DNA of 64,000 nucleotides from a virus. Taxonomy: Duplodnaviria; Caudoviricetes. The notes beneath the pieces were generated by a model. That model was not told the DNA's origin, searched no databases, and was given only the letters and a program-made list of their open reading frames with translations. Location: the IMG/VR virus record IMGVR_UViG_3300031998_000059, positions 7,894 to 71,893 of that record; one strand, given 5' to 3'. The position numbers and the translations under genes are program-made. Positions 16,806 to 34,753 of this stretch are shown here, piece by piece (position 1 is the first letter of the stretch; each line of letters begins with the position of its first letter).

Positions 16806-19800
16806 TTATGCCACATGAAATGAATATACACCATCAACCGTGCGTCTCAGTATCGTGAATATGTCCGAAATCGAACTTGTGTTATCGGCTGTCTGCGCCG
16901 TATTCCTTGCAATCACTTCAAGCTGCTGCAACTGCGCCTGCGCGATAGGGCTTTCATCTGCACCCATACTCCTTTCAATCAGTTCACGTATCGCACTCAT
17001 GTCAGCCCTTACGGCATTCACATAACTTGCAAGGAGGTTGCTTGTAGCCTCGGTTGTTCCTTTCTGACTTGCGGACAATGTTTTGCTTGCCGTATCTGAG
17101 GACGATGTTATCCCAAGCGCCCTCATGGCATTTGCCACAACATCATATATTGTCTTTCCGCTGTTCACCTTGTCCTGCAAATCGGCAAGCGCCTCTGCGA
17201 GCTCTACCGCTTCATTGGCGCTTATCTCGATGCCCTCCTCTGAGTTTGTACTGGTAATGCCAAACAAAAGTTCATTCAGACCGCTCATGGCCGGCTTGAC
17301 AACATTTATCTTCAATATATCATCCACCACACCTTCCATGATGTCAGCAACCGTATCCTTGAAAGCCACTGCTGCATCCTCGCCTTTGGCAAACGCCTTA
17401 GTGATGGAAGATGCTATCTGATCTGCCCAACTGTCTATGTTGATACCATACCTTGAATCGGCGAGTTCACGATAGAAATCAGCAATCTGCTGGTTCATCT
17501 CCTTTATCTGCTGGTCATAGTCGGTCAGTTTAGACGCATCGCTTTTCTTTTTCCTTTCTTCAAGCTCACGCTGCCTCTCCAGTTCCTGACGTTGTTTCAC
17601 AAGGTTGGCCATCAGCTCTGAAGACTGCTCCTTGGTCACCTTGGTAAGCTGTCTCTCGATTATCCATACCAGATTCCTGTACTCGTTCTGTAGCTTCTTC
17701 ACCTCATTGGCAGATTTCTGTATTCTCTCATCAAGATTGTCGTCATGTGCGGTAAACAAACCTCCAATCCAAGAGAACAACTCCCCAACTCCAGCGATTA
17801 TAGCACCTGTCTCGCCATTAGTCGCATAAGCCTTGGCAATGTTGCTGATGGAATCAAACCCTTTCTGCAAATAGTCGGTCAATTCAGACAATCCCCCAAG
17901 TCCTGCCGCATCAAGCACATCGCTCAGTTTCCCTGCCAAATCCTCGGCTATATCCGCACAGGAGGCAAGTGTAAGCGAAAATTCCGCCCATGCCTCCGTC
18001 TTATCCTCCACGCTCGCATCATCGCTTCTAATCGTGTTCATAAGTTTCTCCCATGAAACCTTGAACAGGCTGAACGGATTCTTGTCCCTCCATGCGTCAA
18101 AGAGTTTCTCGCCCTGCTCTCTCAACTCCCCGAACTTGGAAATGGTAATCTTCACATCATGCTTCTCACCATCAGAGTCAATGTAGGATGATATGACACT
18201 CTTCTTGTCGTCAGACTGCACGCCATTGGCTATCAGTTCATCCAACTGTCTGATACCTTCCTTGATGGAAGCAATGGAACGCTTTGCAGTGTCGCCGAAT
18301 ATCTGATCATATACAGGCAGTGTGGCGAACAGTTCCGTTTTCAGCTTGGTTATCTCATCTGTTGCCTGTGCTATCTGAGCGGTATGGTCAGCACCACTCA
18401 CATCTGCCCTCCATTCGGCTATCTGACTCTCAAGTCTTGCAATCTTTTGCTCATTGGTCATGATGGCCTGCATGGCATTCCCTGCCTCTTTCAGGCTTTC
18501 AGTCCAGTTGTTGCCTATATGCTCCACGATTTCCTGATACAGTTTCAATGCAGGGGTGTCCTCCCCGAACAGGCTTTCAGCCAAGCTGCGCGTCATGTTC
18601 CAGTCTTTCACAGGAGAGCCGACGATTTCTTCCAGTTTATCTCTCAGCCCTTCGGCATAGCTGTCCCAAATCTGACCGTTCTTGAAAGCGTTGCTCGCAA
18701 ACTCCTTGTCGCCCGTCTGCTCAAACAAGGTCTTGTAGAGATTGAACTTCCCGCTCTCCTGCTTGATGTAGTCTTCCATCTCCTTCACGGCAAGTTTCAA
18801 CTGCTCCTTGGCAAGTTTCTCTGCTTCCTTACGTGCTTTCTCTGCTTCCTTTTCCGCATTGGTTTCCGCTTTGGTGGTTACTTTGGCACCACCGAGTGCG
18901 TTATAATAGATGTTCTCGGTTGCAGCAAGTTCATCCTGAAGCCCTGGCAACACCTCTTGTGCGGCAACGGAAGTCTTGTTCAAATCTTCAATCTGCCCTT
19001 GCAGGTCTTTGAGATGCGACTTTATCCTGCTGAAATAATCATCCCTTGTCTCTCCTTCATTCGGAAGAAGGTTCTTGAAAGAACCAGCCAAAGCAGAAGA
19101 ATCCTTGTACCAACGCTCCTGTTGTATAGTTGTAATTTTATCATCGTATTCTTTTAGACTATTATAATACTCCTCTGCAAGTCTTTCCTCTTCCTTCAGC
19201 GCATCAATCTCAGCCTGTCTTGCCTCAGTGCCTATTCCGGCAAAATTGTAAAGAGGATTAAGCCAACTGAACGCACCAGTGAAGTTTGTTGGCATTGTGA
19301 ACTCGTTTTCCGCAACCCTTCTCTTCCACCAAGCTTCGTTTAATCTATTCTGTGCCTGTTGCAATGCTTTTTTCCTCGCCTCCTCGTTAACTCTCTTCAA
19401 CGATTCTTCAAGCGTCATATTCAAGGCTACTTCCTTGCTTATGTCATTGAAATATTCTGGGTATAGCTTGTGTAGATTTTCGTATGCCGAAAGTCTTGCC
19501 TCCATCGACTTTGTTGTGTCGGTCATGGTCTTTGCATAGCTTTGTGCGGCTTTCTGCTCCCTCTCAAGCAAATCATGTTCTTTCTGTATTTCCTCATTAA
19601 AGTCCTGTTGCACTTCTTCCAACGTCCTTGTACTTTCATGAAGCAGGAGGTATGCACTTGCGAGTGCAGCAAGAGCAGCAACACCGATTGCAACCCAGTT
19701 CCATTTCATGGCAGCATTGAGGGCATGTTGGGCTACTATCTGCGCTCTTGTCGCCACCGTAAGGCTTTGTATTGCATTACGGGCCATCAGTAAGCGCGAC

Positions 19801-21263
19801 ACTTCGTTCATCCAAATCGAAGCATTCTGATACACAGACAATGCGACAAGCGCAGCTTTATAAGTGCCTATACCTGCGGCAAGCGCAAGGATAACGGACA
19901 CAAGTTTCTCTCCGCTCAATGCCATCTTTGTAAGCCATTCGGCGGTAACCTTGAGCGCATCACCAATCTGGCCTTCTGCCATATCTCCGTACATGATGGA
20001 GAATGCGTCACGCAGGTTCTTCCATTTTGCTGCTACGGTATCGGCAATCTTGTCCTGCAAGTTATAAAACTTACCTCCCTCATCAGTAAGCCTGCGTATC
20101 TGCTCTATCACATCTTCGTAGCTTACCTTGTGTTCGCTGATACGTTTCTGAACCTGCGCTGTGGTAACCATCGTACCTTCCAGTTCAGAGTAGTACTCAG
20201 ACAGCATCTTCAGCATAGGGATATTGTTCATGGCAAACTGGCGAAGTGTATAGCCCGTGAGGTATGTCTGGCTTTTCACATGGCCAAGGGCAAGGGTAAG
20301 CCTTGAAATGTCCTGCCCAGCACCTGCCGAAATGTCTGCTAAACGCTTTATCATGTCATACAGCTCGTTGTATTCGAAACCGTAGGCGGCAAGCTGCTTG
20401 GTGTACTGGTCAAGTTCAACCACTCCAAAAGGCGACCTTACTGCCATTTCCTTTATCTGCTCAAACAGCACGTTGGCCTTGGCGGTATCACCAAGTATGG
20501 CACCCATGCTCACACGCTGCTTTTCCAACTGGCCACCTATCTCAATCACATTTTCAAGAAACTCCCGAAGCATGTGTACGGAATACAGCGAGGTAAACGC
20601 ATCTTTCAAGTCGGCGCTTACTCTTATTCCATTCAGCAACTCCCCGTTCAGGCGAATATGCGAAGCGGTTCTTTCTTTTGTAGCTTTGCTGTTCTCCTTG
20701 GCGGCTTCTGTTGCTGCCTTTGTAGCCTTTCTACTCTCACTTATTGCAAGAGACATTTCCCTCTGCTCTATACCAGCAACCTTTCGTTGTCTTGTCAACT
20801 CAGAAAGAACAGCGTTTTCCCTTTTCAGTGCATCTTGTAACTGTTTTGCCTGTGCAGATGTTTTTCCATAAGTCTTGGAAACACTGTCAAGTTCTTTCTT
20901 GTAGTCTGCTATGTTAGCCTTGCACATTAGAATATCCCTGTCAAGACTGATTATCTGCGCCTTGATACCAGATACACCTTGCAAGCTGCCAAGGTCAAGA
21001 CCAACAACAGCCTGTCCTGACTTACCTACAGATGTCAATGCGGACTGCACGGCCTGTCTTGCCGCGTTAGCATCCGCTTCTATCTTCACCTGGAAACTCT
21101 CTTTGGATATTGCATTCCGAAGGTTGTTTATCATGGTTTCATACGAAGACTTGTCGTAGTCAATAGACAACTTCGTGAGCAGATTCCTCTTTATATCTTC
21201 CGCTTGTTTTTCGGTTTCGTTTTTCAGCTTTACACTGAACTCAAGTGTGCCAAGATTTGCCAT
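16806..21263 (-). CDS. Tape measure protein
   Basis: About 1485 aa, helical; SPFGVVELDQYTKQLAAYG tape-measure domain; start reassigned to 21263. Confidence 0.9.
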   Translation of the reverse strand: MANLGTLEFSVKLKNETEKQAEDIKRNLLTKLSIDYDKSSYETMINNLRNAISKESFQVKIEADANAARQAVQSALTSVGKSGQAVVGLDLGSLQGVSGIKAQIISLDRDILMCKANIADYKKELDSVSKTYGKTSAQAKQLQDALKRENAVLSELTRQRKVAGIEQREMSLAISESRKATKAATEAAKENSKATKERTASHIRLNGELLNGIRVSADLKDAFTSLYSVHMLREFLENVIEIGGQLEKQRVSMGAILGDTAKANVLFEQIKEMAVRSPFGVVELDQYTKQLAAYGFEYNELYDMIKRLADISAGAGQDISRLTLALGHVKSQTYLTGYTLRQFAMNNIPMLKMLSEYYSELEGTMVTTAQVQKRISEHKVSYEDVIEQIRRLTDEGGKFYNLQDKIADTVAAKWKNLRDAFSIMYGDMAEGQIGDALKVTAEWLTKMALSGEKLVSVILALAAGIGTYKAALVALSVYQNASIWMNEVSRLLMARNAIQSLTVATRAQIVAQHALNAAMKWNWVAIGVAALAALASAYLLLHESTRTLEEVQQDFNEEIQKEHDLLEREQKAAQSYAKTMTDTTKSMEARLSAYENLHKLYPEYFNDISKEVALNMTLEESLKRVNEEARKKALQQAQNRLNEAWWKRRVAENEFTMPTNFTGAFSWLNPLYNFAGIGTEARQAEIDALKEEERLAEEYYNSLKEYDDKITTIQQERWYKDSSALAGSFKNLLPNEGETRDDYFSRIKSHLKDLQGQIEDLNKTSVAAQEVLPGLQDELAATENIYYNALGGAKVTTKAETNAEKEAEKARKEAEKLAKEQLKLAVKEMEDYIKQESGKFNLYKTLFEQTGDKEFASNAFKNGQIWDSYAEGLRDKLEEIVGSPVKDWNMTRSLAESLFGEDTPALKLYQEIVEHIGNNWTESLKEAGNAMQAIMTNEQKIARLESQIAEWRADVSGADHTAQIAQATDEITKLKTELFATLPVYDQIFGDTAKRSIASIKEGIRQLDELIANGVQSDDKKSVISSYIDSDGEKHDVKITISKFGELREQGEKLFDAWRDKNPFSLFKVSWEKLMNTIRSDDASVEDKTEAWAEFSLTLASCADIAEDLAGKLSDVLDAAGLGGLSELTDYLQKGFDSISNIAKAYATNGETGAIIAGVGELFSWIGGLFTAHDDNLDERIQKSANEVKKLQNEYRNLVWIIERQLTKVTKEQSSELMANLVKQRQELERQRELEERKKKSDASKLTDYDQQIKEMNQQIADFYRELADSRYGINIDSWADQIASSITKAFAKGEDAAVAFKDTVADIMEGVVDDILKINVVKPAMSGLNELLFGITSTNSEEGIEISANEAVELAEALADLQDKVNSGKTIYDVVANAMRALGITSSSDTASKTLSASQKGTTEATSNLLASYVNAVRADMSAIRELIERSMGADESPIAQAQLQQLEVIARNTAQTADNTSSISDIFTILRRTVDGVYSFHVA

Positions 21264-21288
21264 AATTCTACATGTGATTGTGTTATAC

Positions 21289-21344
21289 AAAAAAAAGAGC
21301 CGAGGTTTCACCCAAGGCTCTTGGCTTTATCTTCTGCAAAGATA
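21289..21344 (-). promoter_or_regulatory. Promoter plus leader attenuator B
   Basis: TATCTTTG, AAAGCCAAGAGC, GAAA hairpin, GCTC, U8. Confidence 0.65.
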
Positions 21345-24118: not shown

Positions 24119-24670
24119 TTAGCCATTGCATCCGCATCCACCTGCAGGGCATGGGCATGGAGTCGCATCACGATACAATGCCACACGCTGAGGATTCTCG
24201 GAGTATCGGCCTGTCATGAGACCTGTCATCACCTGTTGGGTGGCAACTTGTGAAGCGGCCAACTCGGCCTGCTGCTGTGCGGTCAGCTGACCCTGCTGGC
24301 TTCCGCTCACGGTGTCAGTAATGGTCTGGTTCAAGGTCACATCGCCCGAAATACGCTCCTGACGCTCTGCGGAAAGCAGGCTTGTCAACTGGTCAAGCTG
24401 ACGCTGGGTAGCATTGTTCTGCAAGGCGGCAATTTCCTTGGCAGCTACAGCCACTTCCTTGGCCTGGTTAGCCTTGGCATTGCCATACATAGGACCGAAA
24501 ATCCATGCGCCGATGGCTGCGGCAGTACCTACGGTACCAAGCACCAAACCTGCCACACCGATTCCGCTTGTGTGGCTCTTGGCTGTCATGTGGTCCAATT
24601 TCACCTGCTCATAGGGAGTAAGGCTGTGGTTCTCCATAGCCTTCATAGATAAGTAGTCATTGAGTTCCAT
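24119..24670 (-). CDS. TM plus coiled-coil protein ending CPCPAGGCGCNG (cluster gene 2)
   Basis: GIGVAGLVLGTVGTAAAIGAW helix; Cys-rich C-terminus. Confidence 0.75.
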   Translation of the reverse strand: MELNDYLSMKAMENHSLTPYEQVKLDHMTAKSHTSGIGVAGLVLGTVGTAAAIGAWIFGPMYGNAKANQAKEVAVAAKEIAALQNNATQRQLDQLTSLLSAERQERISGDVTLNQTITDTVSGSQQGQLTAQQQAELAASQVATQQVMTGLMTGRYSENPQRVALYRDATPCPCPAGGCGCNG

Positions 24671-24773
24671 ATAAAACGATTTTTTGTTGTTAATAAATTG
24701 TTTCCTCGTCGTGCGCACCGACAACCACAAATTTACCAACATGAAATTCATTGGATAAACAATGGAACACACT

Positions 24774-25205: not shown

Positions 25206-25751
25206 TCAATCAGGTATTCTTTTCCAACTGTTGTTTATGATTTTCGGCGCTTCCATGAAAGTACCAGTCAGCACATCAAGGTGTCTCACGGTTTCAAGGA
25301 GCTGCGAATATTCTGTGCCCGTACACATGACAAACTCTATATCATCGCTCGGTCTGTACGAACGCAGGAAATTGCGCGAGGTGTTCTCGCCATAGTCCTT
25401 GTCAGTGTCAATCAGGCGATATTTCTTCACGGGTACCATTTTGCCGCTGTCGTAGTCCTCAACATAGATTGTGCCGATTCCACTACCTCTCCACAATTTA
25501 CCCCTTACAGGCCTTCTTAATGACAAGTCGGCGTCATACACGCTGATTATCCTCACAAGCGAACGGTTGTAATATATTCCCACCATATAGGAGGTAAACG
25601 TGTTTCCTGTAAGGTTGTGATACTCTTTCTCCCACTCTGCCGTAAGAAGCAGTTTGTAGGCGGCTTCCGTAAGGCTCCCGACTATTGTCTGCCTTATCAA
25701 CGACAACCCTTTGGCAAAGCCCGTGTCAAGTACATCATTGTTACCGCTCAT
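25206..25751 (-). CDS. HK97 gp10-like neck/tail-completion protein
   Basis: YHNLTGNTFTSYMVGIYY motif; structural context. Confidence 0.55.
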   Translation of the reverse strand: MSGNNDVLDTGFAKGLSLIRQTIVGSLTEAAYKLLLTAEWEKEYHNLTGNTFTSYMVGIYYNRSLVRIISVYDADLSLRRPVRGKLWRGSGIGTIYVEDYDSGKMVPVKKYRLIDTDKDYGENTSRNFLRSYRPSDDIEFVMCTGTEYSQLLETVRHLDVLTGTFMEAPKIINNSWKRIPD

Positions 25752-26263
25752 GACAACACAACGTTTGTTATCGGGTCTGTCACACGGAACGTCACCTTGA
25801 AAGTCACAACATTCTCATGGTACAGGTTGCCGTTCTCTTCCTTTGTCATGACTATAGGGTTCTCATCATCAATGGATTTCAGGTAGCAGCCCTGCCTTCC
25901 GATGGTGGAATAGGGAGAATAAATCTTGAGTTCAGCGCCGCTTCCGTTCTCGGTGTCATTGCCGGTAAGCCATTTCTTGAAAGCGGTGATCTGCGTAAGT
26001 GCCAAGTCAAGGTCGAACGGATTCGTCGCCAATTCCTGCCCCTTGTATGCCATGACAAACTCTGCATCATACGCCTCTAACATGGTCTTGGCAGGTATAT
26101 ACACATCTGTACCATGCTCGTCATACCAGTCGTTCTCAGGAAGCTCCTTTACCGATCCTCCTGCCTTGAAAGGCACAGACGCACACACTATACCCCATTG
26201 GGTGAACGAGTTCACCACATTCCCGTCACCCTTCTTGAATTTCAAGCAATGAATATCATCCAT
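25748..26263 (-). CDS. Distal tail (Dit)-like protein
   Basis: KELPENDWYDEHGTDVYIP...V.FKVTFRVTDP. Confidence 0.55.
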   Translation of the reverse strand: MDDIHCLKFKKGDGNVVNSFTQWGIVCASVPFKAGGSVKELPENDWYDEHGTDVYIPAKTMLEAYDAEFVMAYKGQELATNPFDLDLALTQITAFKKWLTGNDTENGSGAELKIYSPYSTIGRQGCYLKSIDDENPIVMTKEENGNLYHENVVTFKVTFRVTDPITNVVLS

Positions 26264-26265
26264 AA

Positions 26266-26541
26266 TCAGTCTATTTTTATACCAACATCTGTTTTTACAC
26301 TCTTACCGAGAATATCTTTTATCGACAGCCCTTTCCCTGCATCCCCGCTTGTCCCGTATCTGGCAATCCATTTATCGTTGGCCTCCATGATACTCGTCTT
26401 GTCCGCAGGTGTATCGTCAAAATCGCCTTTCTTGCGTTTCCTGTTATTCCTTTTTCCGTAGTCATAGTCCACGACACTTACATCAGAAACTATAAGTTCA
26501 AGCTGCGCATTGGTGAGCATCCAGTCCACATAGTACATCAT
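26266..26541 (-). CDS. Tail assembly chaperone, frameshift-extension part
   Basis: Frame stays open upstream to the A9 tract at 26738-46. Confidence 0.6.
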   Translation of the reverse strand: MMYYVDWMLTNAQLELIVSDVSVVDYDYGKRNNRKRKKGDFDDTPADKTSIMEANDKWIARYGTSGDAGKGLSIKDILGKSVKTDVGIKID

Positions 26542-26582
26542 GCCACTTATAGGTATTCCGAACAGCTTCAGCGGACCGGTGT

Positions 26583-27062
26583 CTATTCCGTGTTTTTGGG
26601 CGATTTCCCATCTCTGTCCGTACGTAGTTCTTGAAGGAAACGCTCTGCTTCCTCCTTTGTCTTTTGCTTGTTTGTCGTGTTCAACACGGTTAACAATGTC
26701 ATAGCGCGTAAGTATGCCGGAAGTTCCTCCTGCGCCGTTTTTTTTTGAGCCATCTCAAACAAAGGCATGAGTTCCTCAGAGGTGTACTGCCTTACATAGT
26801 AATACCAACGCCAAACAATCCAGTAGGCAAGATGGCACTTCCAGAACCCGTTAAGTGCAATCAATGCCGCTGCCTGACACAATATCTTACCGTCATTCCC
26901 TTTCCGTGTGAAAAGGTCGGAAATCCAATCATCCGTAGCCGGGTGCATCCACCTCACATTGAATTTCCTGCCTCTTACCATTACCACATCCGCTTTGTTC
27001 CTGACCACACTTAGCAGTTCTTCCTTATCCTCACGTGTGGCATCTTTTATCACTCTGTCCAT
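26583..27062 (-). CDS. Tail assembly chaperone
   Basis: Downstream of the major tail protein; slippery A9 (QKKT). Confidence 0.65.
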   Translation of the reverse strand: MDRVIKDATREDKEELLSVVRNKADVVMVRGRKFNVRWMHPATDDWISDLFTRKGNDGKILCQAAALIALNGFWKCHLAYWIVWRWYYYVRQYTSEELMPLFEMAQKKTAQEELPAYLRAMTLLTVLNTTNKQKTKEEAERFLQELRTDRDGKSPKNTE

Positions 27063-27072
27063 ACATTATATA

Positions 27073-27954
27073 TTATTTGTCAAGTACTTTCTCTATCGCA
27101 TCACTCACCGCACGGGCGTATTTCCTGTAGTCCCATTCGCACTCGTTGTCATTCACGCATACGATACCAGGCTCTTCGGAGCTTATGATGTTCACCACAT
27201 CCTCCACACTCTTCCTCACGCTGGCATAGATGCGCTTCGGGGCATGGTCTATGTAGTTGCCCGACAGGTGGTGCCACCACGGGCAAAGCCACTGGTTGAA
27301 GTTCTTCGGCTCACGGAACGGACTTATGCTGTACGCTATCTCCGTACCCCCGATCCCCCACAGATGCCTCCATGTGCTTCTTAACATCGGTGTTATGCTG
27401 TGCCCTCCTTTCAACCATGTGCCGGTGTAATGCTTTCCGAACTCCTTCGCCACGAAGTTAAGGCCGTTCCTTGCAGCCAGATGGAAGTTGTTCGGCTCTG
27501 TCGGGAAAGCCTTCTCGGTATGGTGCAGACACGGAACACCATCCACAAAGAAATCGTTCTCGGAAAGCGGTGACAGGGGGAACATGTCATCATTCCCGTA
27601 AAGGAATGTCTCGCTTATCCCTGGTATATCTTTCAGGAACATCTCCATCGCACGGCTGTTGAACGTGGGAAGGTACTTTGGCGGCATGAAGTCCCGATGA
27701 TAGGCCACACGCACACCCTCTTCATCCATCCAAGGCCTTTTCTGGCTCTCCCTTGCCAATATTATATATATGGTACGCACGAACGGCATGAACTTCCTCA
27801 CACACCTTACCAGCTGGTGCTCAGTACCCCAACTGCGGTATCTCACAAATTCAAGGAGGTTGTTCTCGTTGTACATCCCGTTGACTTTCCCGAAGTCCTT
27901 GCGCCACAACGGGTCGTCATTGAACACCATCGGAACTACATAGTCTATTGCCAT
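27073..27954 (-). CDS. Stealth-family hexose-1-phosphate transferase
   Basis: IDYVVPMV..DD..W; PTFNSRAMEMFL..IPGISE.FLYGNDDMF (CR1/CR2). Confidence 0.85.
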   Translation of the reverse strand: MAIDYVVPMVFNDDPLWRKDFGKVNGMYNENNLLEFVRYRSWGTEHQLVRCVRKFMPFVRTIYIILARESQKRPWMDEEGVRVAYHRDFMPPKYLPTFNSRAMEMFLKDIPGISETFLYGNDDMFPLSPLSENDFFVDGVPCLHHTEKAFPTEPNNFHLAARNGLNFVAKEFGKHYTGTWLKGGHSITPMLRSTWRHLWGIGGTEIAYSISPFREPKNFNQWLCPWWHHLSGNYIDHAPKRIYASVRKSVEDVVNIISSEEPGIVCVNDNECEWDYRKYARAVSDAIEKVLDK

Positions 27955-27957
27955 AAC

Positions 27958-28818
27958 TTACATATACATTTGCCCGTTCTCATAACAGAACACCGGCTTT
28001 CCCGTCCTCTTGAAAATCTTTTCAGCCTGATCGGCATCGCTCTCGCAGAACAATTGCGCCCAAGCCGCATCCCTATATATCCGCGCTTTGAACTTCGCGG
28101 GACTCATCGTGCCGTTTCTCGCATCCCTGTCAGGTGCGTTGAACATGTGCAACTGCCCGTATTCTATACCGTGTTTCTTCATCCACCCCTCGGTCACGCC
28201 ACGGTACTTTTCAAGGCGATAGGTTACAAACGCACCTATCCTTGTGGTGGGTATGATCATCGGTACTGCATTGGGCAGGTATTCTTCATAAGCCTTGGTG
28301 TCCCTGTCGTCAGGTGGGTTCTTGCAGAGCAGTCCGTCAACATCCCACATACTCACATCGGTCTTCTTCGGCCAGTGGTGCATGATGTTCCATTCATACA
28401 GCCACATCTTCTCGCCTGGCCGCCATATATCGTAGAGCCAGACATCAACGGCATTCTTTGCCTTTCTCCCCTCTGCATAGACACAGCCGTAGAGTATCTC
28501 GTACTTGCCTTCAAGCGGAGCAAGGCGTTCCTTTGTCTTGCGCATTGCGTCACCGCTGTAATACGTATCATCAATTACCAACACCTTACCTGCCTTACCT
28601 GCGTTTGTCATGAAGCGTTGTCTGTTGCCGCACGACATTTCCCTACCTTCAATGAATGCGTCAAGGTCTGCGCAACGCCTGTTCATCAGTTCGGCTATCA
28701 TCAGCGCAGGTATCATTCCTGAACGAGGTACACCAACTATAAGGTCAACATCATACGGGATCTTCCATAGATTCGTACGTATAACGCTCGCCATATCTTC
28801 AAAACTCGTGTATATCAT
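27958..28818 (-). CDS. Phosphoribosyltransferase-HAD phosphatase fusion
   Basis: VGVPRSG, VLVIDDTYYSG (PRPP loop); WDVDGLL (HAD motif I). Confidence 0.8.
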   Translation of the reverse strand: MIYTSFEDMASVIRTNLWKIPYDVDLIVGVPRSGMIPALMIAELMNRRCADLDAFIEGREMSCGNRQRFMTNAGKAGKVLVIDDTYYSGDAMRKTKERLAPLEGKYEILYGCVYAEGRKAKNAVDVWLYDIWRPGEKMWLYEWNIMHHWPKKTDVSMWDVDGLLCKNPPDDRDTKAYEEYLPNAVPMIIPTTRIGAFVTYRLEKYRGVTEGWMKKHGIEYGQLHMFNAPDRDARNGTMSPAKFKARIYRDAAWAQLFCESDADQAEKIFKRTGKPVFCYENGQMYM

Positions 28819-29600
28819 TGCTTGTTATTATTAATAAATGCCTCTTTCTCTGCCGTTCGTTCATTGAAGCGGAAGAAGTAGTCTTTGTACTGCTCCTTGA
28901 ACTTCGCGTATGTAACACCTGCCGCACCTTTCTTCCATTTGTTTGTCACCCATTCCTCAATAGTCTTCGTTGAGAAATGCTTTAAGTATGCCACACTTGT
29001 ATCCTGCGGCTGTCTTTTATTCTGCCCTGTAGGCTCTAATAATGGCGTACAGCACTTTAGTATCGGCTTGCTCGGGACATGGACGCTCTTGACGAATCGA
29101 AGATCTGTAATACCTGTACGGACAATACATTTACCAAGTGTAGATGGATGTACAAGGTACTCGGTGAAACGCTCCATCAAAGGCCTTCCGTCATTCCTCA
29201 CCAATCCGCTGTCCGTCATTATCAACCAAGGTATCATAACAACATGATACTCTTTTGGTATTCTTTGCAAGAAGCTATCAACCGCTCCATGTGATTCTAT
29301 GTCAGGAAGACAAAGGAACTCGTCGAAGTCAAAGAAGGCTATCCAGTCGTATTCCGAAGAAAAACGCGCATAGGCATCGTTATAGGCATTACGCTGCGCC
29401 CGCTCTATATCACGATATGGGACTATCACCACATTACCATTATCTATATAGTCTTGTAGTACCGCCTCAAAGCGTTCCTCTCCACGATGATTGTTATCGT
29501 AGATAATCACTTTATTGAAACCTATCCCAAGATGGTGTTCCACAAACTCACGGGCATAGTCGTTTTCAAGCCGCCCGATAGCCACCAACGCCACCTTCAT
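28815..29600 (-). CDS. GT-A glycosyltransferase (GT2/GT92-like)
   Basis: EFVEHHL.IGF..VIIYDNN; WIAFFDFDEFL. Confidence 0.85.
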   Translation of the reverse strand: MKVALVAIGRLENDYAREFVEHHLGIGFNKVIIYDNNHRGEERFEAVLQDYIDNGNVVIVPYRDIERAQRNAYNDAYARFSSEYDWIAFFDFDEFLCLPDIESHGAVDSFLQRIPKEYHVVMIPWLIMTDSGLVRNDGRPLMERFTEYLVHPSTLGKCIVRTGITDLRFVKSVHVPSKPILKCCTPLLEPTGQNKRQPQDTSVAYLKHFSTKTIEEWVTNKWKKGAAGVTYAKFKEQYKDYFFRFNERTAEKEAFINNNKQ

Positions 29601-29601
29601 A

Positions 29602-30291
29602 CTACTTCCACAAATCCTTATTCTGTCTTAGCCATAGAGACGCATCCTTATTCTTCCAGCTCCCAGCCTTGAAGTGTACGATGTATTCGCCTATGCCGAT
29701 TTCCAGTTTCGGCAGTCCGTGCGATGCGCAGTCTTCGGCAAACCACATTCCTGTGTCATAGCCGATACCTGGAACATCTTTTGTCAAGGCATACATCCTT
29801 TCGGGGTTGAAATATGACACACCGTTGTTGTGCATCATGCGCACGTTGACATAGCAGAGGAAAGGCAACAGCCTGTCATGGCACTCTCCAAGGCGTTTCA
29901 CATTCTTCGCCACCTCTCCGACGTATGCGTATTCGGGATTCCAGAAACAGGTGATGTCTTTCTTTATCAGAACGTCCGAGTCCATCAGCACAAAAGGATT
30001 CTTGCGCTTGTTGACGAACCACTGGATGCTGTAGCAGTGCTTGGCACTTGCCCAATCGTTGGTAGTCTTAACCTTGTCGGGAAATCCTTTCAACCACTCC
30101 CCGAAGTTGATAATCTGCCCCTTCGTGTTGTCAATATATGTGACATTATCAAAGGTATTGACAAAAGGCCTCTTGTCGCTGTTGTCAAACACTATGACCT
30201 GACATCCTTCCGTAGTCTTGTTCAGTGAACGGATAGTGGCGCTCGTCAACTCAGGTGTGTTGTAATGTATTATCACTACATCTTTTTTCAT
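29602..30291 (-). CDS. GT-A glycosyltransferase
   Basis: VIIHYNTPELT; VIVFDNSD; VLMDSDVL (DxD). Confidence 0.8.
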   Translation of the reverse strand: MKKDVVIIHYNTPELTSATIRSLNKTTEGCQVIVFDNSDKRPFVNTFDNVTYIDNTKGQIINFGEWLKGFPDKVKTTNDWASAKHCYSIQWFVNKRKNPFVLMDSDVLIKKDITCFWNPEYAYVGEVAKNVKRLGECHDRLLPFLCYVNVRMMHNNGVSYFNPERMYALTKDVPGIGYDTGMWFAEDCASHGLPKLEIGIGEYIVHFKAGSWKNKDASLWLRQNKDLWK

Positions 30292-30305
30292 AAGCCGTAT
30301 TATAT

Positions 30306-30340
30306 AAAAAAGAGGGGCAAGGCGGATAACCGCCCGCCCC
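30306..30340 (-). terminator. Terminator between the major tail gene and the GT cluster
   Basis: GC-rich hairpin plus U6. Confidence 0.6.
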
Positions 30341-30366
30341 CATTTGCGTATTCAGAAGAGACCCAA

Positions 30367-30936
30367 TCAATTGCTTGAGCTTGAGCCTTCAAGACTCAGA
30401 GGATAGAATGACGCACCGGTGGAATCAGGCATCGGTGTTACAAGCACGTTGTAATAGCCCGTTGAATCATCACCTCCCTCGCCGTTGAAAGAAGCATACA
30501 TCTCAACGTTGGGAAGATATACAAGGGTAGTCTTGTCCTCGCTCTCCATGAGCAGCGCACCGGTCACTTTCTTGACTCCGAGGCCATAGCCGTTACCGGT
30601 GTAGGTCTTGCCTTCAAACTCCACGGAAACAGCTTCCGAGGTCTTCTTCTCCATCAGCAGGTCGTTGATGGTGTCATGAACGCTCGACACCTGGAAGGCG
30701 ATGTTTGAATCACCCTTCGTGGCCTTGCTCGCCCACAGCACACCGTCGGTAAGCTCCACATCGTTCTTGTTAGCGGCACCAGTGTCAAAGGTGACACCAC
30801 CGTTCAGAACGGGAAACTCAATGCCGCCAGTCTGTTCAGCCAAAGGCTTGGTAGCATCAGGGAAGTAATACACCCTGTTCACCTTGTCGAAAATCTTGTG
30901 CAGATTCTCCTTTTTGGTAGATATTGTTACACCCAT
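30367..30936 (-). CDS. Major tail (tube) protein
   Basis: EFPVL.GGVTFDTG; VYLPNVEMYASF; C-terminal GSSSSN. Confidence 0.7.
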   Translation of the reverse strand: MGVTISTKKENLHKIFDKVNRVYYFPDATKPLAEQTGGIEFPVLNGGVTFDTGAANKNDVELTDGVLWASKATKGDSNIAFQVSSVHDTINDLLMEKKTSEAVSVEFEGKTYTGNGYGLGVKKVTGALLMESEDKTTLVYLPNVEMYASFNGEGGDDSTGYYNVLVTPMPDSTGASFYPLSLEGSSSSN

Positions 30937-30953
30937 AATCTTTGTGTTTATGT

Positions 30954-31343
30954 TTAAACCTTAATAACTATATTGAACTGCATCACACACGAATGATACC
31001 CCATACCGTCAGACATGCTGCCAAGAAGAACAGGCTTCTCGTTGCAACTTATCAGATCTGTACTGAACGGAAGCAGTCCGCACACCCCGTCTATCAGCGA
31101 CTCCATTCGCTCCACGCTTTCAACACCGTTGGCAATGTCCTTGGCATAAAGCTGGAACTGCACATAAGCGGTGTTGTGCGTGTCTGCATAGGGCGTGATG
31201 CCTTGCGGCAACCTGATAATGACAAACTTGTCGCTTGTCCCCTTTACCGTCTCACGATTGGTCGTATGCACGTCAGGACATACGGTAAGAACCATGTCCC
31301 TCAATGCACCCAAGACAGCCTTTCTGTTATACCTGTTTGCCAT
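30954..31343 (-). CDS. Tail terminator/completion protein
   Basis: FVIIRLP...YVQFQLYAKD. Confidence 0.6.
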   Translation of the reverse strand: MANRYNRKAVLGALRDMVLTVCPDVHTTNRETVKGTSDKFVIIRLPQGITPYADTHNTAYVQFQLYAKDIANGVESVERMESLIDGVCGLLPFSTDLISCNEKPVLLGSMSDGMGYHSCVMQFNIVIKV

Positions 31344-31347
31344 GGCA

Positions 31348-31851
31348 TCACGTCTTATATTCGTCACAATAGAGGGTTGTCCCAAGACCACCCTTATAAG
31401 TATCGTTCAGCCTCAATGTGCAGGATGGGGCAATCCCCTCATCCGAAGAACTTGATCCATGCGATGCAGAGGGAACACCGTTTGCAACGGCCTTATCCCA
31501 CTCGCCTGCCAAGTCCCTCTCATACACATCGACGAACATCCCTGATTTGGGAACATCGGTGACAGCACCGCATTCCTCACCATAGCGCCCGTCAGGGGCG
31601 GCATCCTCATCACCAGGCAGCTTACCGCCGACCAATGAACCGAGCTGCACCCTGTAGTCGCTTTTCAGAACATGGTCAGACCCGTAGAACGTGCGCACGG
31701 AAGTGTTGCTCTCCTTGCGGCAACGGCCTTGCCAGACCACCTTCTTCAAGGCGGCTATCTCCTGCTCCGTCTCAAAGCCCGTAGGCTCCTGCATCGTATA
31801 TACCGTGCAACGGTGCGGAAATCTCGGAAAGTCCTTTGCAAGCCTGCCCAT
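31348..31851 (-). CDS. Head-closure protein
   Basis: PRFPHRCTVY..VWQGRCRKE; start reassigned; internal GSSSS. Confidence 0.6.
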   Translation of the reverse strand: MGRLAKDFPRFPHRCTVYTMQEPTGFETEQEIAALKKVVWQGRCRKESNTSVRTFYGSDHVLKSDYRVQLGSLVGGKLPGDEDAAPDGRYGEECGAVTDVPKSGMFVDVYERDLAGEWDKAVANGVPSASHGSSSSDEGIAPSCTLRLNDTYKGGLGTTLYCDEYKT

Positions 31852-31855
31852 ATCG

Positions 31856-32224
31856 CTACCAGTTAAGAATGCGTATCCTCGAATTGCCGAGGAGAGGCTC
31901 GTCCCACTTGGAATACAGGTCAAGGTATCTCTTCTTCCATTCGTCGATGTTAGCCTTAGATACCTGCCACCCTCCTTCCGAATGAGACCATCCTCCATCG
32001 GCAACCTTCTCGGTGCCCCCTCCTACAGGAAGGCTCGCAAGCCAATAGTACATCGTACCCTCGGCAAGGTCAGCATCCCTTTCCGACAACTCGGCGTAAG
32101 GCGTATCAGGCTCAATCCTGCGCTTTGCGCACACATACCGTACACCTGAATCCGTAACCAGCTCACAGATGTCTTTCAAAAACTGGCTGACTGTATCGAA
32201 ACCTTCCATAGGAGCATCATTCAT
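31856..32224 (-). CDS. Head-tail connector (DUF6706-like)
   Basis: DLAEG.MYYW....P......K.ADGGWSHSEGG. Confidence 0.65.
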   Translation of the reverse strand: MNDAPMEGFDTVSQFLKDICELVTDSGVRYVCAKRRIEPDTPYAELSERDADLAEGTMYYWLASLPVGGGTEKVADGGWSHSEGGWQVSKANIDEWKKRYLDLYSKWDEPLLGNSRIRILNW

Positions 32225-32231
32225 GGGTTAA

Positions 32232-33467
32232 TCATTCGCTTGAACTTGAGGTTGTGGAGCTTGAGCTTGAACCTGAAGTCTTTGGAGCAATGGTGGAGAT
32301 ATACATGTGCAGGATTGCGCCAGGAACGCAAATCTGGCCCATTTCACCATTCACGTTGATAGAGTGAGAACGAGGAACATCCTCCTGCTCAATCAACAGG
32401 CGTTTGCCCATCGAGTAAGCCACCTTGTCGGCATCATAGCCCATAGACAGAGGCTGCACACCCTGAATGCCACCAAGCTTGCCGGTAGGCACGAAGGCAA
32501 CGTTCTGTGGATCGAAGTTGTCGATTCTCTCCTCCACCAAGTCAGGCTCGCCGAGAGCGTTCACACCAGGCTTGCTCACATAGGCGTAAGTGTCCTGGAT
32601 GGCAATCTCGTCAACCTTGATGATTCTGCGTACAGCGTCCTTCATCACATCATCATCGGTGAAACGGGCGATGTCTGAACGTGCGCTGTCACTTGCGACA
32701 TTGCGGTAAATCCAGTTTGCAAGCACACTGACTACCTTGCTGTGACCGAGGAAGTCATCCCATGTGTCACGGGCGAACTCAGCCTTCAGAGGACCGTTGT
32801 AGTGCAGGTCTCTGCGGATAGCCTTCACACGCTTTGCCAGATAACCCAGAGGGTCTGACTGGCTACCTTCAACGGTATGCTCTGCGTTCTTCCACCACTG
32901 GTATTCGCCTGTCAGCACATCCTTGTTGGCGGAAGGCATGTTGAAACCGATGGTCACGCCCTTGTAACCGCGTGGGTTGTTGGTGGCGCTGATGGTGAAC
33001 TGGCCTGTGGAGACAATCTGATGACGCTGATGGTTCAGCGCATTGTAGAATGACTGGATGAGTCCGTCGGTGCCCTCATCGAGCAATCCGAACATCACTT
33101 CACGCATCTCATCATCCATCACGGCATTGCCGTACTTCTGCACAAGCTGCATCTTCTCACGCAGGATAACGCGGTTCACAGAGTAGAACAGCTTCTGCGT
33201 AGGCACGTTGCCGGTCTTGCCTTCCAACTGGCCGAGAGGCTTCTCGAAACCTTCGGACTCAGGGTCAACATAGGTGGGGAGCACCTGCGCTCCGACCTTT
33301 GCCAGCATCTGCGTCCAAGTGTAGCCGATACTTACGGGGTCGAACTCGAAACCGTCAATGGTGATTGCGTCGAACTTCTCCTCGTAGTGGTCAACAAAGG
33401 TCTGCCAATCCTGACCGTACATGCCAAGATTGATCATGTCTCTTAAAGTAACTGGAATTGTTCTCAT
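32232..33467 (-). CDS. Major capsid protein
   Basis: 411 aa; follows scaffold and decoration genes; Ser-rich C-terminus. Confidence 0.8.
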   Translation of the reverse strand: MRTIPVTLRDMINLGMYGQDWQTFVDHYEEKFDAITIDGFEFDPVSIGYTWTQMLAKVGAQVLPTYVDPESEGFEKPLGQLEGKTGNVPTQKLFYSVNRVILREKMQLVQKYGNAVMDDEMREVMFGLLDEGTDGLIQSFYNALNHQRHQIVSTGQFTISATNNPRGYKGVTIGFNMPSANKDVLTGEYQWWKNAEHTVEGSQSDPLGYLAKRVKAIRRDLHYNGPLKAEFARDTWDDFLGHSKVVSVLANWIYRNVASDSARSDIARFTDDDVMKDAVRRIIKVDEIAIQDTYAYVSKPGVNALGEPDLVEERIDNFDPQNVAFVPTGKLGGIQGVQPLSMGYDADKVAYSMGKRLLIEQEDVPRSHSINVNGEMGQICVPGAILHMYISTIAPKTSGSSSSSTTSSSSE

Positions 33468-33499: not shown

Positions 33500-33970
33500 T
33501 TACACGATTTCGACCTTTGGACCATTCAGCTTGACGGTCATACCCTTGAGGGCGGTTGCAACAGCAGCGGCCTGCTCGGGGGTGTCACCAAGCATATATC
33601 CGTAAATCTCACCTTTCTTAATCACCGTGCAGGTTGCAAAGGTGTCCGCGTTGATAACGGGAACATCCTCCTGCAAGAAACCGATGATTCCAAGAGTATC
33701 AACACCACTGCCAGCGGCGGCAGTTGTGATGTCAGACCATTTCAGTGCTTTGTAATCCTGCTCGTCAGCACCCTGAGTATCATCCTTCACTACTGCCATA
33801 CCGGCGCGGATGATACCTGCACTCACGAAATCGGAAACATTCTTGATTCTGCCGGTACCAGGCCACTGCTCGTAGATTCTGCGCCATACCTTACGGGCAT
33901 GACCCATTGTGAAACTCTGAGCATCGAAGGTGTTACCGGTCTGAAAAACTTGATTCTTCATTTGCTTCAA
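33500..33970 (-). CDS. Head decoration-like protein
   Basis: Position between scaffold and capsid; GFLQEDV...T.TVIKKGEIY. Confidence 0.55.
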   Translation of the reverse strand: MKQMKNQVFQTGNTFDAQSFTMGHARKVWRRIYEQWPGTGRIKNVSDFVSAGIIRAGMAVVKDDTQGADEQDYKALKWSDITTAAAGSGVDTLGIIGFLQEDVPVINADTFATCTVIKKGEIYGYMLGDTPEQAAAVATALKGMTVKLNGPKVEIV

Positions 33971-34001: not shown

Positions 34002-34688
34002 TCAGTTCTTCCTGCCCCATCCCTCTTTCTGCGCCTTCTTCTTGAAGGCCTTGTCAAGTTCGGTCTCAGAGCTTGCACCGCCACCACCTGACAAACGGGG
34101 AGGCGCACCGCCGCCACGGCATCTGAGGTATTCGGCATCGTACTTCGCCAGATACTCTTTGGTGAGGTCCTCTACTGTCTTTGTCACATCGAGTTCCACA
34201 CCCTTGAGCGTTTGTTCAAGCACATACTCGTCGGTGGCCTTCTGCCCCTTCATGGCGTTTTTCACCTTTGCAAGGAGTTCCGCCTGCTGCTTGGTCTTGT
34301 CGCTGCTGTCAAGCCTTGATGTCAAGGCGTCTATCTGTGCTTTGAGGTTCTTGACCTCTTCGCTTTCAGGAGAAGGTGTCTTGGCACCCTCTATCAGCTT
34401 CTTGATTTCGGCAAGCTGACCGTCGTTCATGTTCTTGATTGTTTCGGCATCGAACTTGAAGTTTTTCTTCCACTCCTCCGCCTTGCCAGCAAGCAGGAAG
34501 TTGATGTTACCCTGAAAATCCTTGGCAAGATTCACGATTCCCGTGAAATAGGCATCATCCGGCTCCACTCCTTCGCCAAGAGGGGCTACGGAGTTCCTGA
34601 ACTCTACTGCTTTCTGGATGGTTTGCGCGGAAACGTCGGTTTTTCCGAGTCTTTCCTGCACGGTAGAAACGATTTTTTCGATTTCCAT
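34002..34688 (-). CDS. Scaffolding protein
   Basis: Coiled coil, Gly-rich linker, basic end; start reassigned to 34688. Confidence 0.65.
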   Translation of the reverse strand: MEIEKIVSTVQERLGKTDVSAQTIQKAVEFRNSVAPLGEGVEPDDAYFTGIVNLAKDFQGNINFLLAGKAEEWKKNFKFDAETIKNMNDGQLAEIKKLIEGAKTPSPESEEVKNLKAQIDALTSRLDSSDKTKQQAELLAKVKNAMKGQKATDEYVLEQTLKGVELDVTKTVEDLTKEYLAKYDAEYLRCRGGGAPPRLSGGGGASSETELDKAFKKKAQKEGWGRKN

Positions 34689-34708
34689 ATTCCTTGTGTT
34701 TATGTTAT

Positions 34709-34753
34709 AAAAAAAGGGAGCATCGGTGTCTTTCACCAAAGCTCCCAGGCTTT
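34709..34753 (-). promoter_or_regulatory. Leader attenuator C
   Basis: AAAGCCTGGGAGC, GAAA hairpin, GCTCCC, U7. Confidence 0.6.

Follow-up and report, generated by a model that had tools for sequence, protein, structure and literature searches.

A putative virion glycosylation system in Bacteroidales-type phages: serine-rich tags on structural proteins co-occur with GT-A and Stealth enzymes

To our knowledge, virion glycosylation of tailed phages has been demonstrated so far only in a few mycobacteriophages. O-glycosylation was described for Che8, Corndog, and Myrna, with the glycans placed at the C termini of the capsid and tail tube subunits (Freeman et al. 2023, Cell Host Microbe 31:1216, as cited in PMC12619734, PMC10877033, and PMC11256854). 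Here, we analyzed a 64,000-nt stretch of viral DNA (the window), which spans bases 7894 to 71893 of the 71,893-base IMG/VR record IMGVR_UViG_3300031998_000059, rated complete by CheckV. The window derives from a gut/rumen Bacteroidales-type phage of ~72 kb and contains four tightly packed genes for predicted glycan enzymes (27073 to 30291, minus strand) inserted between the tail tube and tail assembly chaperone genes. Two of these genes encode glycosyltransferases with a GT-A fold, one a phosphoribosyltransferase (PRTase)-HAD fusion, and one a Stealth-family protein. Short serine-rich tags are present on the structural proteins encoded nearby, and we argue below that these proteins are probably modified by the enzymes.

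As far as the published accounts describe the mycobacteriophage system, the present locus has in common with it the phage-encoded glycosyltransferases and the C-terminal segments on capsid and tube, which here are predicted acceptors; cytoplasmic modification before or during assembly and a glycan coat covering the particle, here predicted from genes alone, would also be shared. The two systems differ in their hosts, which are Actinobacteria for the mycobacteriophages and Bacteroidales-type gut/rumen bacteria for window-type phages. The window system, unlike that of the mycobacteriophages, has a Stealth core that implies phosphodiester chemistry, a recognizable tag consisting of a serine run followed by an acidic residue, S(n)-[E/D], and enzyme genes located inside the tail operon. 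The mycobacteriophage enzymes are not homologous to those studied here: neither Stealth nor the core GT-A enzyme, which we label GT229, had a tblastn match (E ≤ 1e-3) in 50,697 GenBank phage records. Judged by this comparison, the likeness is thus one of functional analogy only, not of homology or family membership.

Gram-positive serine-rich repeat adhesins are O-glycosylated in the cytoplasm by soluble GT-A and GT-B enzymes (GtfA/B and the GT8 enzymes GlyD/GlyE). Serine-rich segments, which in the phage proteins are probably disordered as well, and soluble glycosyltransferases are features of both systems, and GlyE (5gvw) is among the tied fold matches of GT229 (Z = 13.1). Unlike the adhesins, whose modified segments extend over hundreds of residues, the virion tags are 5 to 33 amino acids (aa) long; moreover, the phage system has no GtfA/B homologue and no accessory Sec pathway, and it contains a Stealth enzyme.

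Serine tags and enzymes across relatives

In the window, the major capsid protein (MCP; 411 aa; 32232 to 33467, minus strand), which matches the PHROG 29 major head protein (E = 4.6e-11), ends in TSGSSSSSTTSSSSE (also given as KTSGSSSSSTTSSSSE); its 18-aa C-terminal extension, APKTSGSSSSSTTSSSSE (32235 to 32288, minus strand), is the proposed glycan acceptor tag. The tail tube-like protein (189 aa; 30367 to 30936, minus strand) ends in LEGSSSSN, with the GSSSSN tag at 30370 to 30387 on the same strand. A head-tail connector-like protein (167 aa; 31348 to 31851, minus strand) has HGSSSSD within an insertion of ~28 aa relative to its homologues, and the GSSSSD in this inserted loop (31441 to 31458, minus strand) could be an optional third acceptor site. 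The equivalent loop is SSSSDDSSSSEEE in loci L009, L011, and L012; none of the relatives lacking the enzymes has the serine loop, and some of those carrying them lack it as well. An earlier reading made from the sequence alone had pointed to these three motifs and to the codons shared by capsid and tube, and we found each where it had been placed (MCP, GGT TCA AGC TCA AGC; tube, GGC TCA AGC TCA AGC). Its names for two of the carriers, tail tube and head closure, have their basis only in gene position and weak ESM Atlas leads (Phage_TTP_17 and YomU_Tube for the tube-like protein; DUF6093 and Phage_HCP for the connector-like protein), and PHROGs gave no function for either protein or for any of the enzymes.

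The motif itself had been written as GSSSS. While the serine run recurs among relatives, the preceding glycine is not conserved, and we therefore rejected G-SSSS and restated the tag as three to nine serines followed by Glu or Asp, often closing the protein. The residue after the run was Glu in 34 of 50 runs and could also be Ala, Gly, or Thr within repeats. Four consecutive serines are not rare by chance, occurring ~27 times in the six-frame translation of the window; the significance of the tags thus comes from comparative data, not from the window alone.

For this comparison, 97 further loci were gathered from IMG/VR and metagenomes, and each was scored for the C terminus of the MCP, the C terminus of the tube protein, and the genes that follow the tube gene; counts are based on 43 distinct MCP lineages with known gene order. 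The GT229-Stealth pair was present in 13 of the 43 lineages and absent in 30. Ser-rich C-terminal extensions on MCP and tube were found in all 13 enzyme-bearing lineages and in none of the 30 enzyme-less ones, and scoring the two proteins independently returned the same split (Fisher P = 2.7e-11, not corrected for phylogeny). Serine tails in phages lacking the glycosyltransferases, or the reverse, had been named at the outset as the pattern that would speak against a link; there were no such cases among the 43 lineages. LoVEphage, for example, has neither tags nor enzymes: its MCP ends in STVTV, its tube protein in KKVSE, and its chaperone genes directly follow the tube gene. The same arrangement, with a homologous chaperone or next tail gene directly after a homologous tube gene, is found in 29 other relatives. 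Tail-less MCPs end exactly 2 aa past a conserved ST[VI] motif, whereas tailed MCPs run on for 13 to 33 aa, and the extended form is confined to enzyme-bearing phages.

On an MCP tree built from tail-trimmed sequences, the tail changed state at least seven times and the enzymes at least six times. Five independent contrasts fell on well-supported branches and six on all branches, all of them concordant; between closely related MCP cores (branch lengths of 0.05 to 0.1), the presence of a tail switched along with that of the enzymes. An enzyme-less locus, L021, is nested in a tailed clade; its MCP ends in APDA (L021:11180-11215), where TAA takes the place of the first Ser codon and TCA TCA GCG comes next, an apparent remnant of a tag that was recently truncated after enzyme loss. 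Tags also appear on further, unlinked virion proteins, and do so only in enzyme-bearing phages. A tail protein (171-aa gene, p171 homologue) is Ser-tagged in L004, L005, and L018, although not in the window, and a 146-aa head protein is tagged in L015. These comparisons support the virion proteins as the probable substrates of the enzymes.

The coupling recurs in capsid families no more than 25% identical to the window MCP. In L017, whose MCP is 25% identical to that of the window, the enzymes are GT229 and Stealth alone, and the MCP and tube end in SSSSSSSEGE and SSSSSSGE, respectively. In a phage type of ~100 kb (L100 to L103 and L106), DUF4422, GT-A, and Stealth are encoded 6 to 13 kb from the head genes; the protein encoded after the head protease ends in eight serines and an aspartate, and its 168-aa neighbor ends in SDSSSD. 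Within this type, L101 and L106 have both enzymes and tags, whereas L186 and L187 (79% and 62% MCP identity) have neither, which provides a seventh concordant contrast. In a 124-kb phage (L105), Stealth, PRT-HAD, and GT229 genes lie side by side and an MCP-like protein ends in DDSSSSDSSSSD. Thus, the contrast is repeated in a second capsid family, and phages of a third have enzymes together with tags.

A variant of the system was found in L058, where divergent Stealth (35% identity) and GT-A (42%) proteins (L058:8792-10491) accompany Gly/Ser/Thr-rich tags; the MCP has GGGGSTGSGSH and ends in STSGGGGSTGSGSH, and the tube protein ends in AAGSGS. The presence of a variant tag alongside divergent enzymes suggests, at the level of sequence, that tag and enzyme specificity evolve together. 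The MCPs of L061 and L064 also end in the variant Gly/Ser/Thr-rich tag.

Two side observations concern the tags. The serine runs of the tails (window and L004 to L105) alternate between TCN and AGY codons, often as TCA AGC or TCA AGT, and the frequency of TCA is 25% in the tails versus 12% elsewhere in the genes of the window; a shared origin, slippage avoidance, or tRNA use during translation could account for this. Separately, on a 172-kb scaffold (L104:1-20699; ENA ERZ28653768 scaffold_186) whose genes translate only when TAG is read as Gln, a GT229-type GT-A, two DUF4422 proteins, a Caps_synth/Gly_transf_sug protein, and UDP-galactopyranose mutase (GLF) are encoded together. A 186-aa protein adjoining these glycan genes has an Asp/Ser-rich end, DSDSSSDSESEDSSSESK, and there is no Stealth gene within 10 kb. 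This locus may represent a galactofuranose-based version of the tag-enzyme arrangement in a recoded large phage.

Core and accessory enzymes

All four enzyme assignments of the sequence-only reading were borne out by Pfam, PDB sequence matches, and fold comparison, and none of the four proteins has a transmembrane segment. GT229 (29602 to 30291, minus strand) belongs to no Pfam family; its similarity to the GT8 family PF01501 (E = 0.052, 13.6 bits) is below the cutoff of 24.3, and a few of its homologues have weak precomputed matches to the same family. Its AlphaFold2 model is a confident GT-A fold (predicted local distance difference test [pLDDT] score of 94). In the VIA fold comparison, the C-terminal domain of the Klebsiella galactan polymerase WbbM (PDB 6u4b; residues 280 to 564) heads the list at Z = 13.7, but UGGT, ColGalT1, LgtC, GlyE, and glycogenin tie with it (best matches, 13.0 to 13.7; WbbM, UGGT, LgtC, GlyE, and glycogenin taken together, 12.3 to 13.7), and LARGE1 and SpsA-type GT2 enzymes are likewise tied at 12 to 13. 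D36, N37, S38, D104 and D106 (DxD), and H206 are invariant. The family comprises at least 270 proteins, none of them named, and is found in every enzyme-bearing lineage.

The fourth enzyme (293 aa; 27073 to 27954, minus strand) is a predicted Stealth-family hexose-1-phosphate transferase. It matches PF11380 (Stealth_CR2) with 87.3 bits against a cutoff of 39.4 (E = 1e-24), and its closest solved relatives are Mycobacterium tuberculosis CpsY (8j2n; E = 6e-14) and the catalytic domain of GNPTAB (7s6n; E = 2e-9). The family was reportedly described by Sperisen and colleagues in 2005. Its members use a nucleotide sugar as the donor of hexose-1-phosphate, and the linkage that results is a phosphodiester (PMC7729866). 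With CpsY, GNPTAB, and the Neisseria capsule polymerases, the phage protein shares a CR2 region with the N-D-D and LPTFNS motifs, as well as solubility and a predicted nucleotide-sugar donor. In 11 phage homologues, N121, D122, and D123 are invariant, as are L95, P96, F98, and S100 of LPTFNS, while T97 and N99 are at least 90% conserved. The phage form stands apart in its short length, in matching only CR2 in Pfam, in its identity of at most 34% to bacterial homologues, and in always being paired with a GT229-type GT-A; a glycan attached to protein, or perhaps serine itself, would be its acceptor, and bacterial Stealth enzymes are not known to use either.

The accessory enzymes vary. In the window, a GT92-like GT-A glycosyltransferase (28815 to 29600, minus strand) matches both GT92 (PF01697; residues 17 to 212, 61.3 bits against a cutoff of 23, E = 1.4e-16) and Glyco_tranf_2_4 (47.8 bits). 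A GT92-like domain is fused to GT229 in L066, whereas in most relatives (L004, L005, L015, and L025 among others) its place is taken by a fused DUF4422 domain (Pfam E = 3.4e-25). This N-terminal domain matches WbbM (E = 1.2e-8), and the fusion has the architecture of that polymerase, in which DUF4422 is joined to a GT8 domain. The window phage differs from WbbM in having a separate GT92-like gene, no Pfam match to DUF4422, and no lipid-linked acceptor machinery.

The second accessory protein, the PRTase-HAD fusion (PRT-HAD; 27958 to 28818, minus strand), was modeled as two domains (pLDDT of 89). Residues 1 to 148 adopt a type I PRTase fold (Z = 12.9 to 13.0 to XGPRT and HGXPRT) with a Pfam Pribosyltran score of 24.3 bits, just below the 26.3 cutoff, and the fold of residues 151 to 286 is of the HAD phosphatase type, resembling that of T4 Pnkp (Z = 12.8; partial match to PHROG 415). 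D83 and D84 of the loop predicted to bind phosphoribosyl pyrophosphate (PRPP) are invariant, as are D159, D161 (the DxD nucleophile motif), and G162 of the HAD domain. PRPP-dependent gPRT + HAD PRP ribofuranosyl transferases take part in the synthesis of bacterial polysaccharides, according to the account of Kelly et al. 2022 given in PMC11127046, and CriT/CrpP of Haemophilus influenzae Bcs3 pairs PRPP-dependent ribofuranosyl transfer with a HAD phosphatase (PMC10299916). The phage protein shares with these enzymes a PRTase-like PRPP domain and a HAD phosphatase, joined in one cytoplasmic protein among glycan enzymes. Unlike CriT, which has D...E, its PRTase domain is of the compact canonical type I with a vicinal DD. 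The PDB sequence search gave no match to solved gPRT + PRP members, and characterized ribofuranosyl transferases (Bcs3 CriT/CrpP and the T. composti enzyme) appeared neither in that search nor among the listed fold matches of PRT-HAD, which leaves kinship possible. By analogy, we consider PRT-HAD a candidate PRPP-dependent ribofuranosyl transferase with 5-phosphatase activity. It also adjoins Stealth in L004 and L105. The family numbers at least 1,418 proteins, most of which are encoded on short contigs from metagenomes, and its named members are labeled only as uncharacterized HAD superfamily protein. Since accessory domains vary among relatives, the core module is GT-A plus Stealth; a second transferase, which differs among lineages, and in some cases PRT-HAD are added to it.

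The distribution of the core pair was also surveyed in bacteria, using one genome for each of 185,579 prokaryotic species. Among the best 80 Stealth loci, GT229 lay near Stealth in a single case, a phage contig binned in a Bacteroidales metagenome-assembled genome, which also encoded a tagged protein. The other 79 had 25 to 34% identity and were ordinary-looking bacterial loci lacking GT-A. An IMG/VR search with back-translated GT229 peptides returned nothing, whereas Stealth and MCP queries did match. We found no paper on this system, and literature searches on Stealth in phage capsids, capsid glycosylation, and LoVEphage glycosylation gave nothing relevant.

Proposed pathway and alternative explanations

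We favor the reading that the four genes direct a cytoplasmic, late-expressed O-linked (phospho)glycosylation of the phage's own virion proteins on their serine tags, and we assign this reading a probability of about 0.78. The structural operon would be transcribed late, with a hairpin after the tube gene passing only some transcripts into the enzyme genes. The hairpin in question is GC rich, is joined to a U-run (30305 to 30341, minus strand), and resembles a terminator or attenuator; the predicted folding energy of the 75-nt spacer containing it is -26.4 kcal/mol (z = -2.7), and an equivalent post-tube hairpin is kept in relatives with and without enzymes (L002 to L028 spacers). Because the hairpin is present regardless of the enzyme cluster, the enzymes appear to have been inserted downstream of a preexisting terminator or attenuator and are probably made late, by read-through, at a lower level than the tube protein. 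Partial read-through would fit catalytic, rather than structural, amounts of enzyme.

The acceptors would be short, probably disordered serine runs with an acidic residue, appended to conserved capsid, tube, and connector-like proteins. GT229 and Stealth would assemble an O-linked glycan on these serines that includes sugar-1-phosphate in phosphodiester linkage, and the accessory enzymes would diversify it, here through the GT92-like transferase and through ribofuranose added from PRPP by PRT-HAD; in most relatives, the DUF4422 domain fused to the core GT-A would take this part in a WbbM-like arrangement. Capsid and tube subunits number in the hundreds in each particle, and the resulting glycan coat would be dense. 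Such a coat might shield the virion from antibodies, proteases, or host sensors, improve its colloidal stability, or let it adhere to mucus or glycans. We infer the role of the tags as acceptors, the order of the enzymes, the identities of the sugars, the length of the polymer, and the benefit to the phage; the capsule-like phosphoglycan envisaged in the sequence-only reading would follow only by analogy with known Stealth activity. In a bolder version, which we hold to be rather unlikely, Stealth would place sugar-1-phosphate directly on the tag serines (Ser-O-PO3-sugar), and the GT-A and accessory enzymes would extend it to a polymer resembling capsule or teichoic acid. Protein phosphoglycosylation is not known to us outside a few eukaryotes, Dictyostelium and Leishmania among them, in which the acceptors are likewise Ser-rich.

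Several observations weigh against virion glycosylation as we propose it. The independent contrasts are few, five to seven, with sign test P values of 0.06 to 0.016, and in the LoVE-like lineage MCP, tube, and enzymes lie within ~6 kb, so that some co-inheritance is expected from linkage. In the window Stealth protein, Pfam (E ≤ 0.01) found only CR2 and not CR1, CR3, or CR4; three blocks that are conserved in the alignment, an N-terminal IDYVVPMVF, GHS, and NDN, have the relative positions expected for the other regions and may correspond to them. Characterized Stealth enzymes act on sugars, and none in bacteria is known for protein acceptors (PMC7729866). The PRTase domain keeps the canonical DD of nucleobase PRTases, which leaves room for a nucleotide-related role. 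Finally, there is no isolate of an enzyme-bearing phage among the GenBank phage records.

It is conceivable that the enzymes act on the host instead, altering its capsule, lipopolysaccharide, or exopolysaccharide for superinfection exclusion or receptor masking, with the serine tails being unrelated linkers or adhesion tags in the same module. Host serotype conversion by phage glycosyltransferases has precedent (PMC12619734), enzymes of the GT92, DUF4422, and PRT-HAD types typically belong to polysaccharide synthesis, and the bacterial Stealth proteins closest to the phage one, which are widespread in the genomes of gut Bacteroidales and Clostridia, probably make surface polymers. This explanation nevertheless leaves unaccounted for why the same tag on two to four virion genes tracks the enzymes through at least six events in three capsid families. 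The cluster encodes no flippase, polyprenyl-phosphate transferase, exporter, or membrane segment, its genes sit behind the tube gene in the late structural operon, and in L101 tags are present although the enzymes are 6 to 13 kb from the capsid gene; we therefore regard a role at the host surface as improbable. The co-occurrence could also reflect linkage or shared ancestry, with capsid, tube, and enzymes swapped as one recombination block that has no functional tie. In addition to the compact LoVE-like arrangement and the small number of contrasts, the mosaicism of phage modules favors this view; L026, for instance, combines a window-type MCP with an L015-type tube. The tags, however, are small appendages on conserved cores that switch between close relatives together with the enzymes, they recur on nonhomologous or very distant proteins (L017, L101, and L105), also with the enzymes kilobases away, and in L021 a stop codon cuts the tag in place rather than the gene being replaced. 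Linkage alone is thus a weak rival, to which we give very little credence.

An equally slim chance attaches to the tags being modified in some other way, either phosphorylated by host kinases on S(n)-E or used to recruit the enzymes to another virion substrate such as DNA. Serine runs before acidic residues resemble acidophilic kinase sites, which speaks for the former. For the latter, DNA is a common target of phage glycosyltransferases (PMC12619734), and the PRTase-like domain could act on bases. Neither model gives a reason for the coupling of the tags to Stealth and GT-A. DNA hypermodification was set aside as unlikely because no thymidylate-synthase-like hydroxymethylase gene was found in the 71.9-kb genome (control genomes were positive) and because the cluster lies in the late structural operon, outside the replication module.

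Gene neighborhood and biological implications

The structural genes around the enzyme insert, all on the minus strand, run from a scaffold-like gene (34002 to 34739) and a small head protein gene (33500 to 33970) through the MCP gene, an adaptor-like gene (31856 to 32224), the connector-like gene, and a 145-aa gene to the tube-like gene. Downstream, the insert is bordered by a chaperone-like pair (159 and 91 aa; 26266 to 27062), after which come further tail genes and the tape measure gene (16806 to 21311). The window MCP has a core homologous to the major head proteins of LoVEphage (Bacteroides) and PV4-TP1 (Phocaeicola), with 47.7% identity. The tube-like protein is 46% identical to the product of the LoVEphage gene directly preceding the chaperone and tape measure genes, and the chaperone-like pair corresponds, with 41% and 34% identity, to the products of the two genes that separate tube and tape measure in LoVEphage. 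The connector-like reading frame is open over 31348 to 32004; since its homologues have 107 to 139 aa and begin with MGRLA, the true start is probably the ATG at 31851. A prophage or lysogenic conversion context was considered and is unsupported, the window being part of a complete 71.9-kb viral record.

Two further features of the tail operon were observed. A 176-aa gene that lies between the connector-like and 130-aa genes in LoVEphage (L001:13918-14448) has a homologue in the window lineage that is located downstream of the chaperone genes, next to the 171-aa tail gene (this part of the window, 25206 to 26263), so the gene order differs from that of LoVEphage. A membrane/coiled-coil protein (24119 to 24772, minus strand) has a Cys-rich end, CPCPAGGCGCNG; its counterpart in L101 (L101:18815-19378) ends in CGCPGGCGCNG, and the neighboring genes are common to the window phage and the ~100-kb L101 type. 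The Cys-tail gene and its neighbors appear to form a mobile small-gene cluster inside tail operons.

If our reading is correct, the tag and enzyme pair would serve as a rule to predict coated phages straight from metagenomes. The minimal version in L017, with one GT-A, one Stealth enzyme, and tags, is small enough for reconstitution and might find use in cytoplasmic glycan display, with proteins or particles as the carriers. Should direct phosphoglycosylation of serine also hold, a tag of ~5 residues and two small soluble enzymes would constitute a portable, genetically encoded phosphoglycan display. For the phages themselves, virion glycosylation would extend to abundant gut/rumen Bacteroidales-type phages of at least three capsid families, with a chemistry different from that of the mycobacteriophages, namely, phosphodiester-linked sugars made by Stealth and possibly ribofuranose and galactofuranose, and with an acceptor tag that can be read from sequence. 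A dense glycan coat would bear on persistence in the gut through interactions with antibodies, proteases, and mucus, on the sensing of capsid and tube proteins by host defenses, and on the pharmacology of phage therapy.

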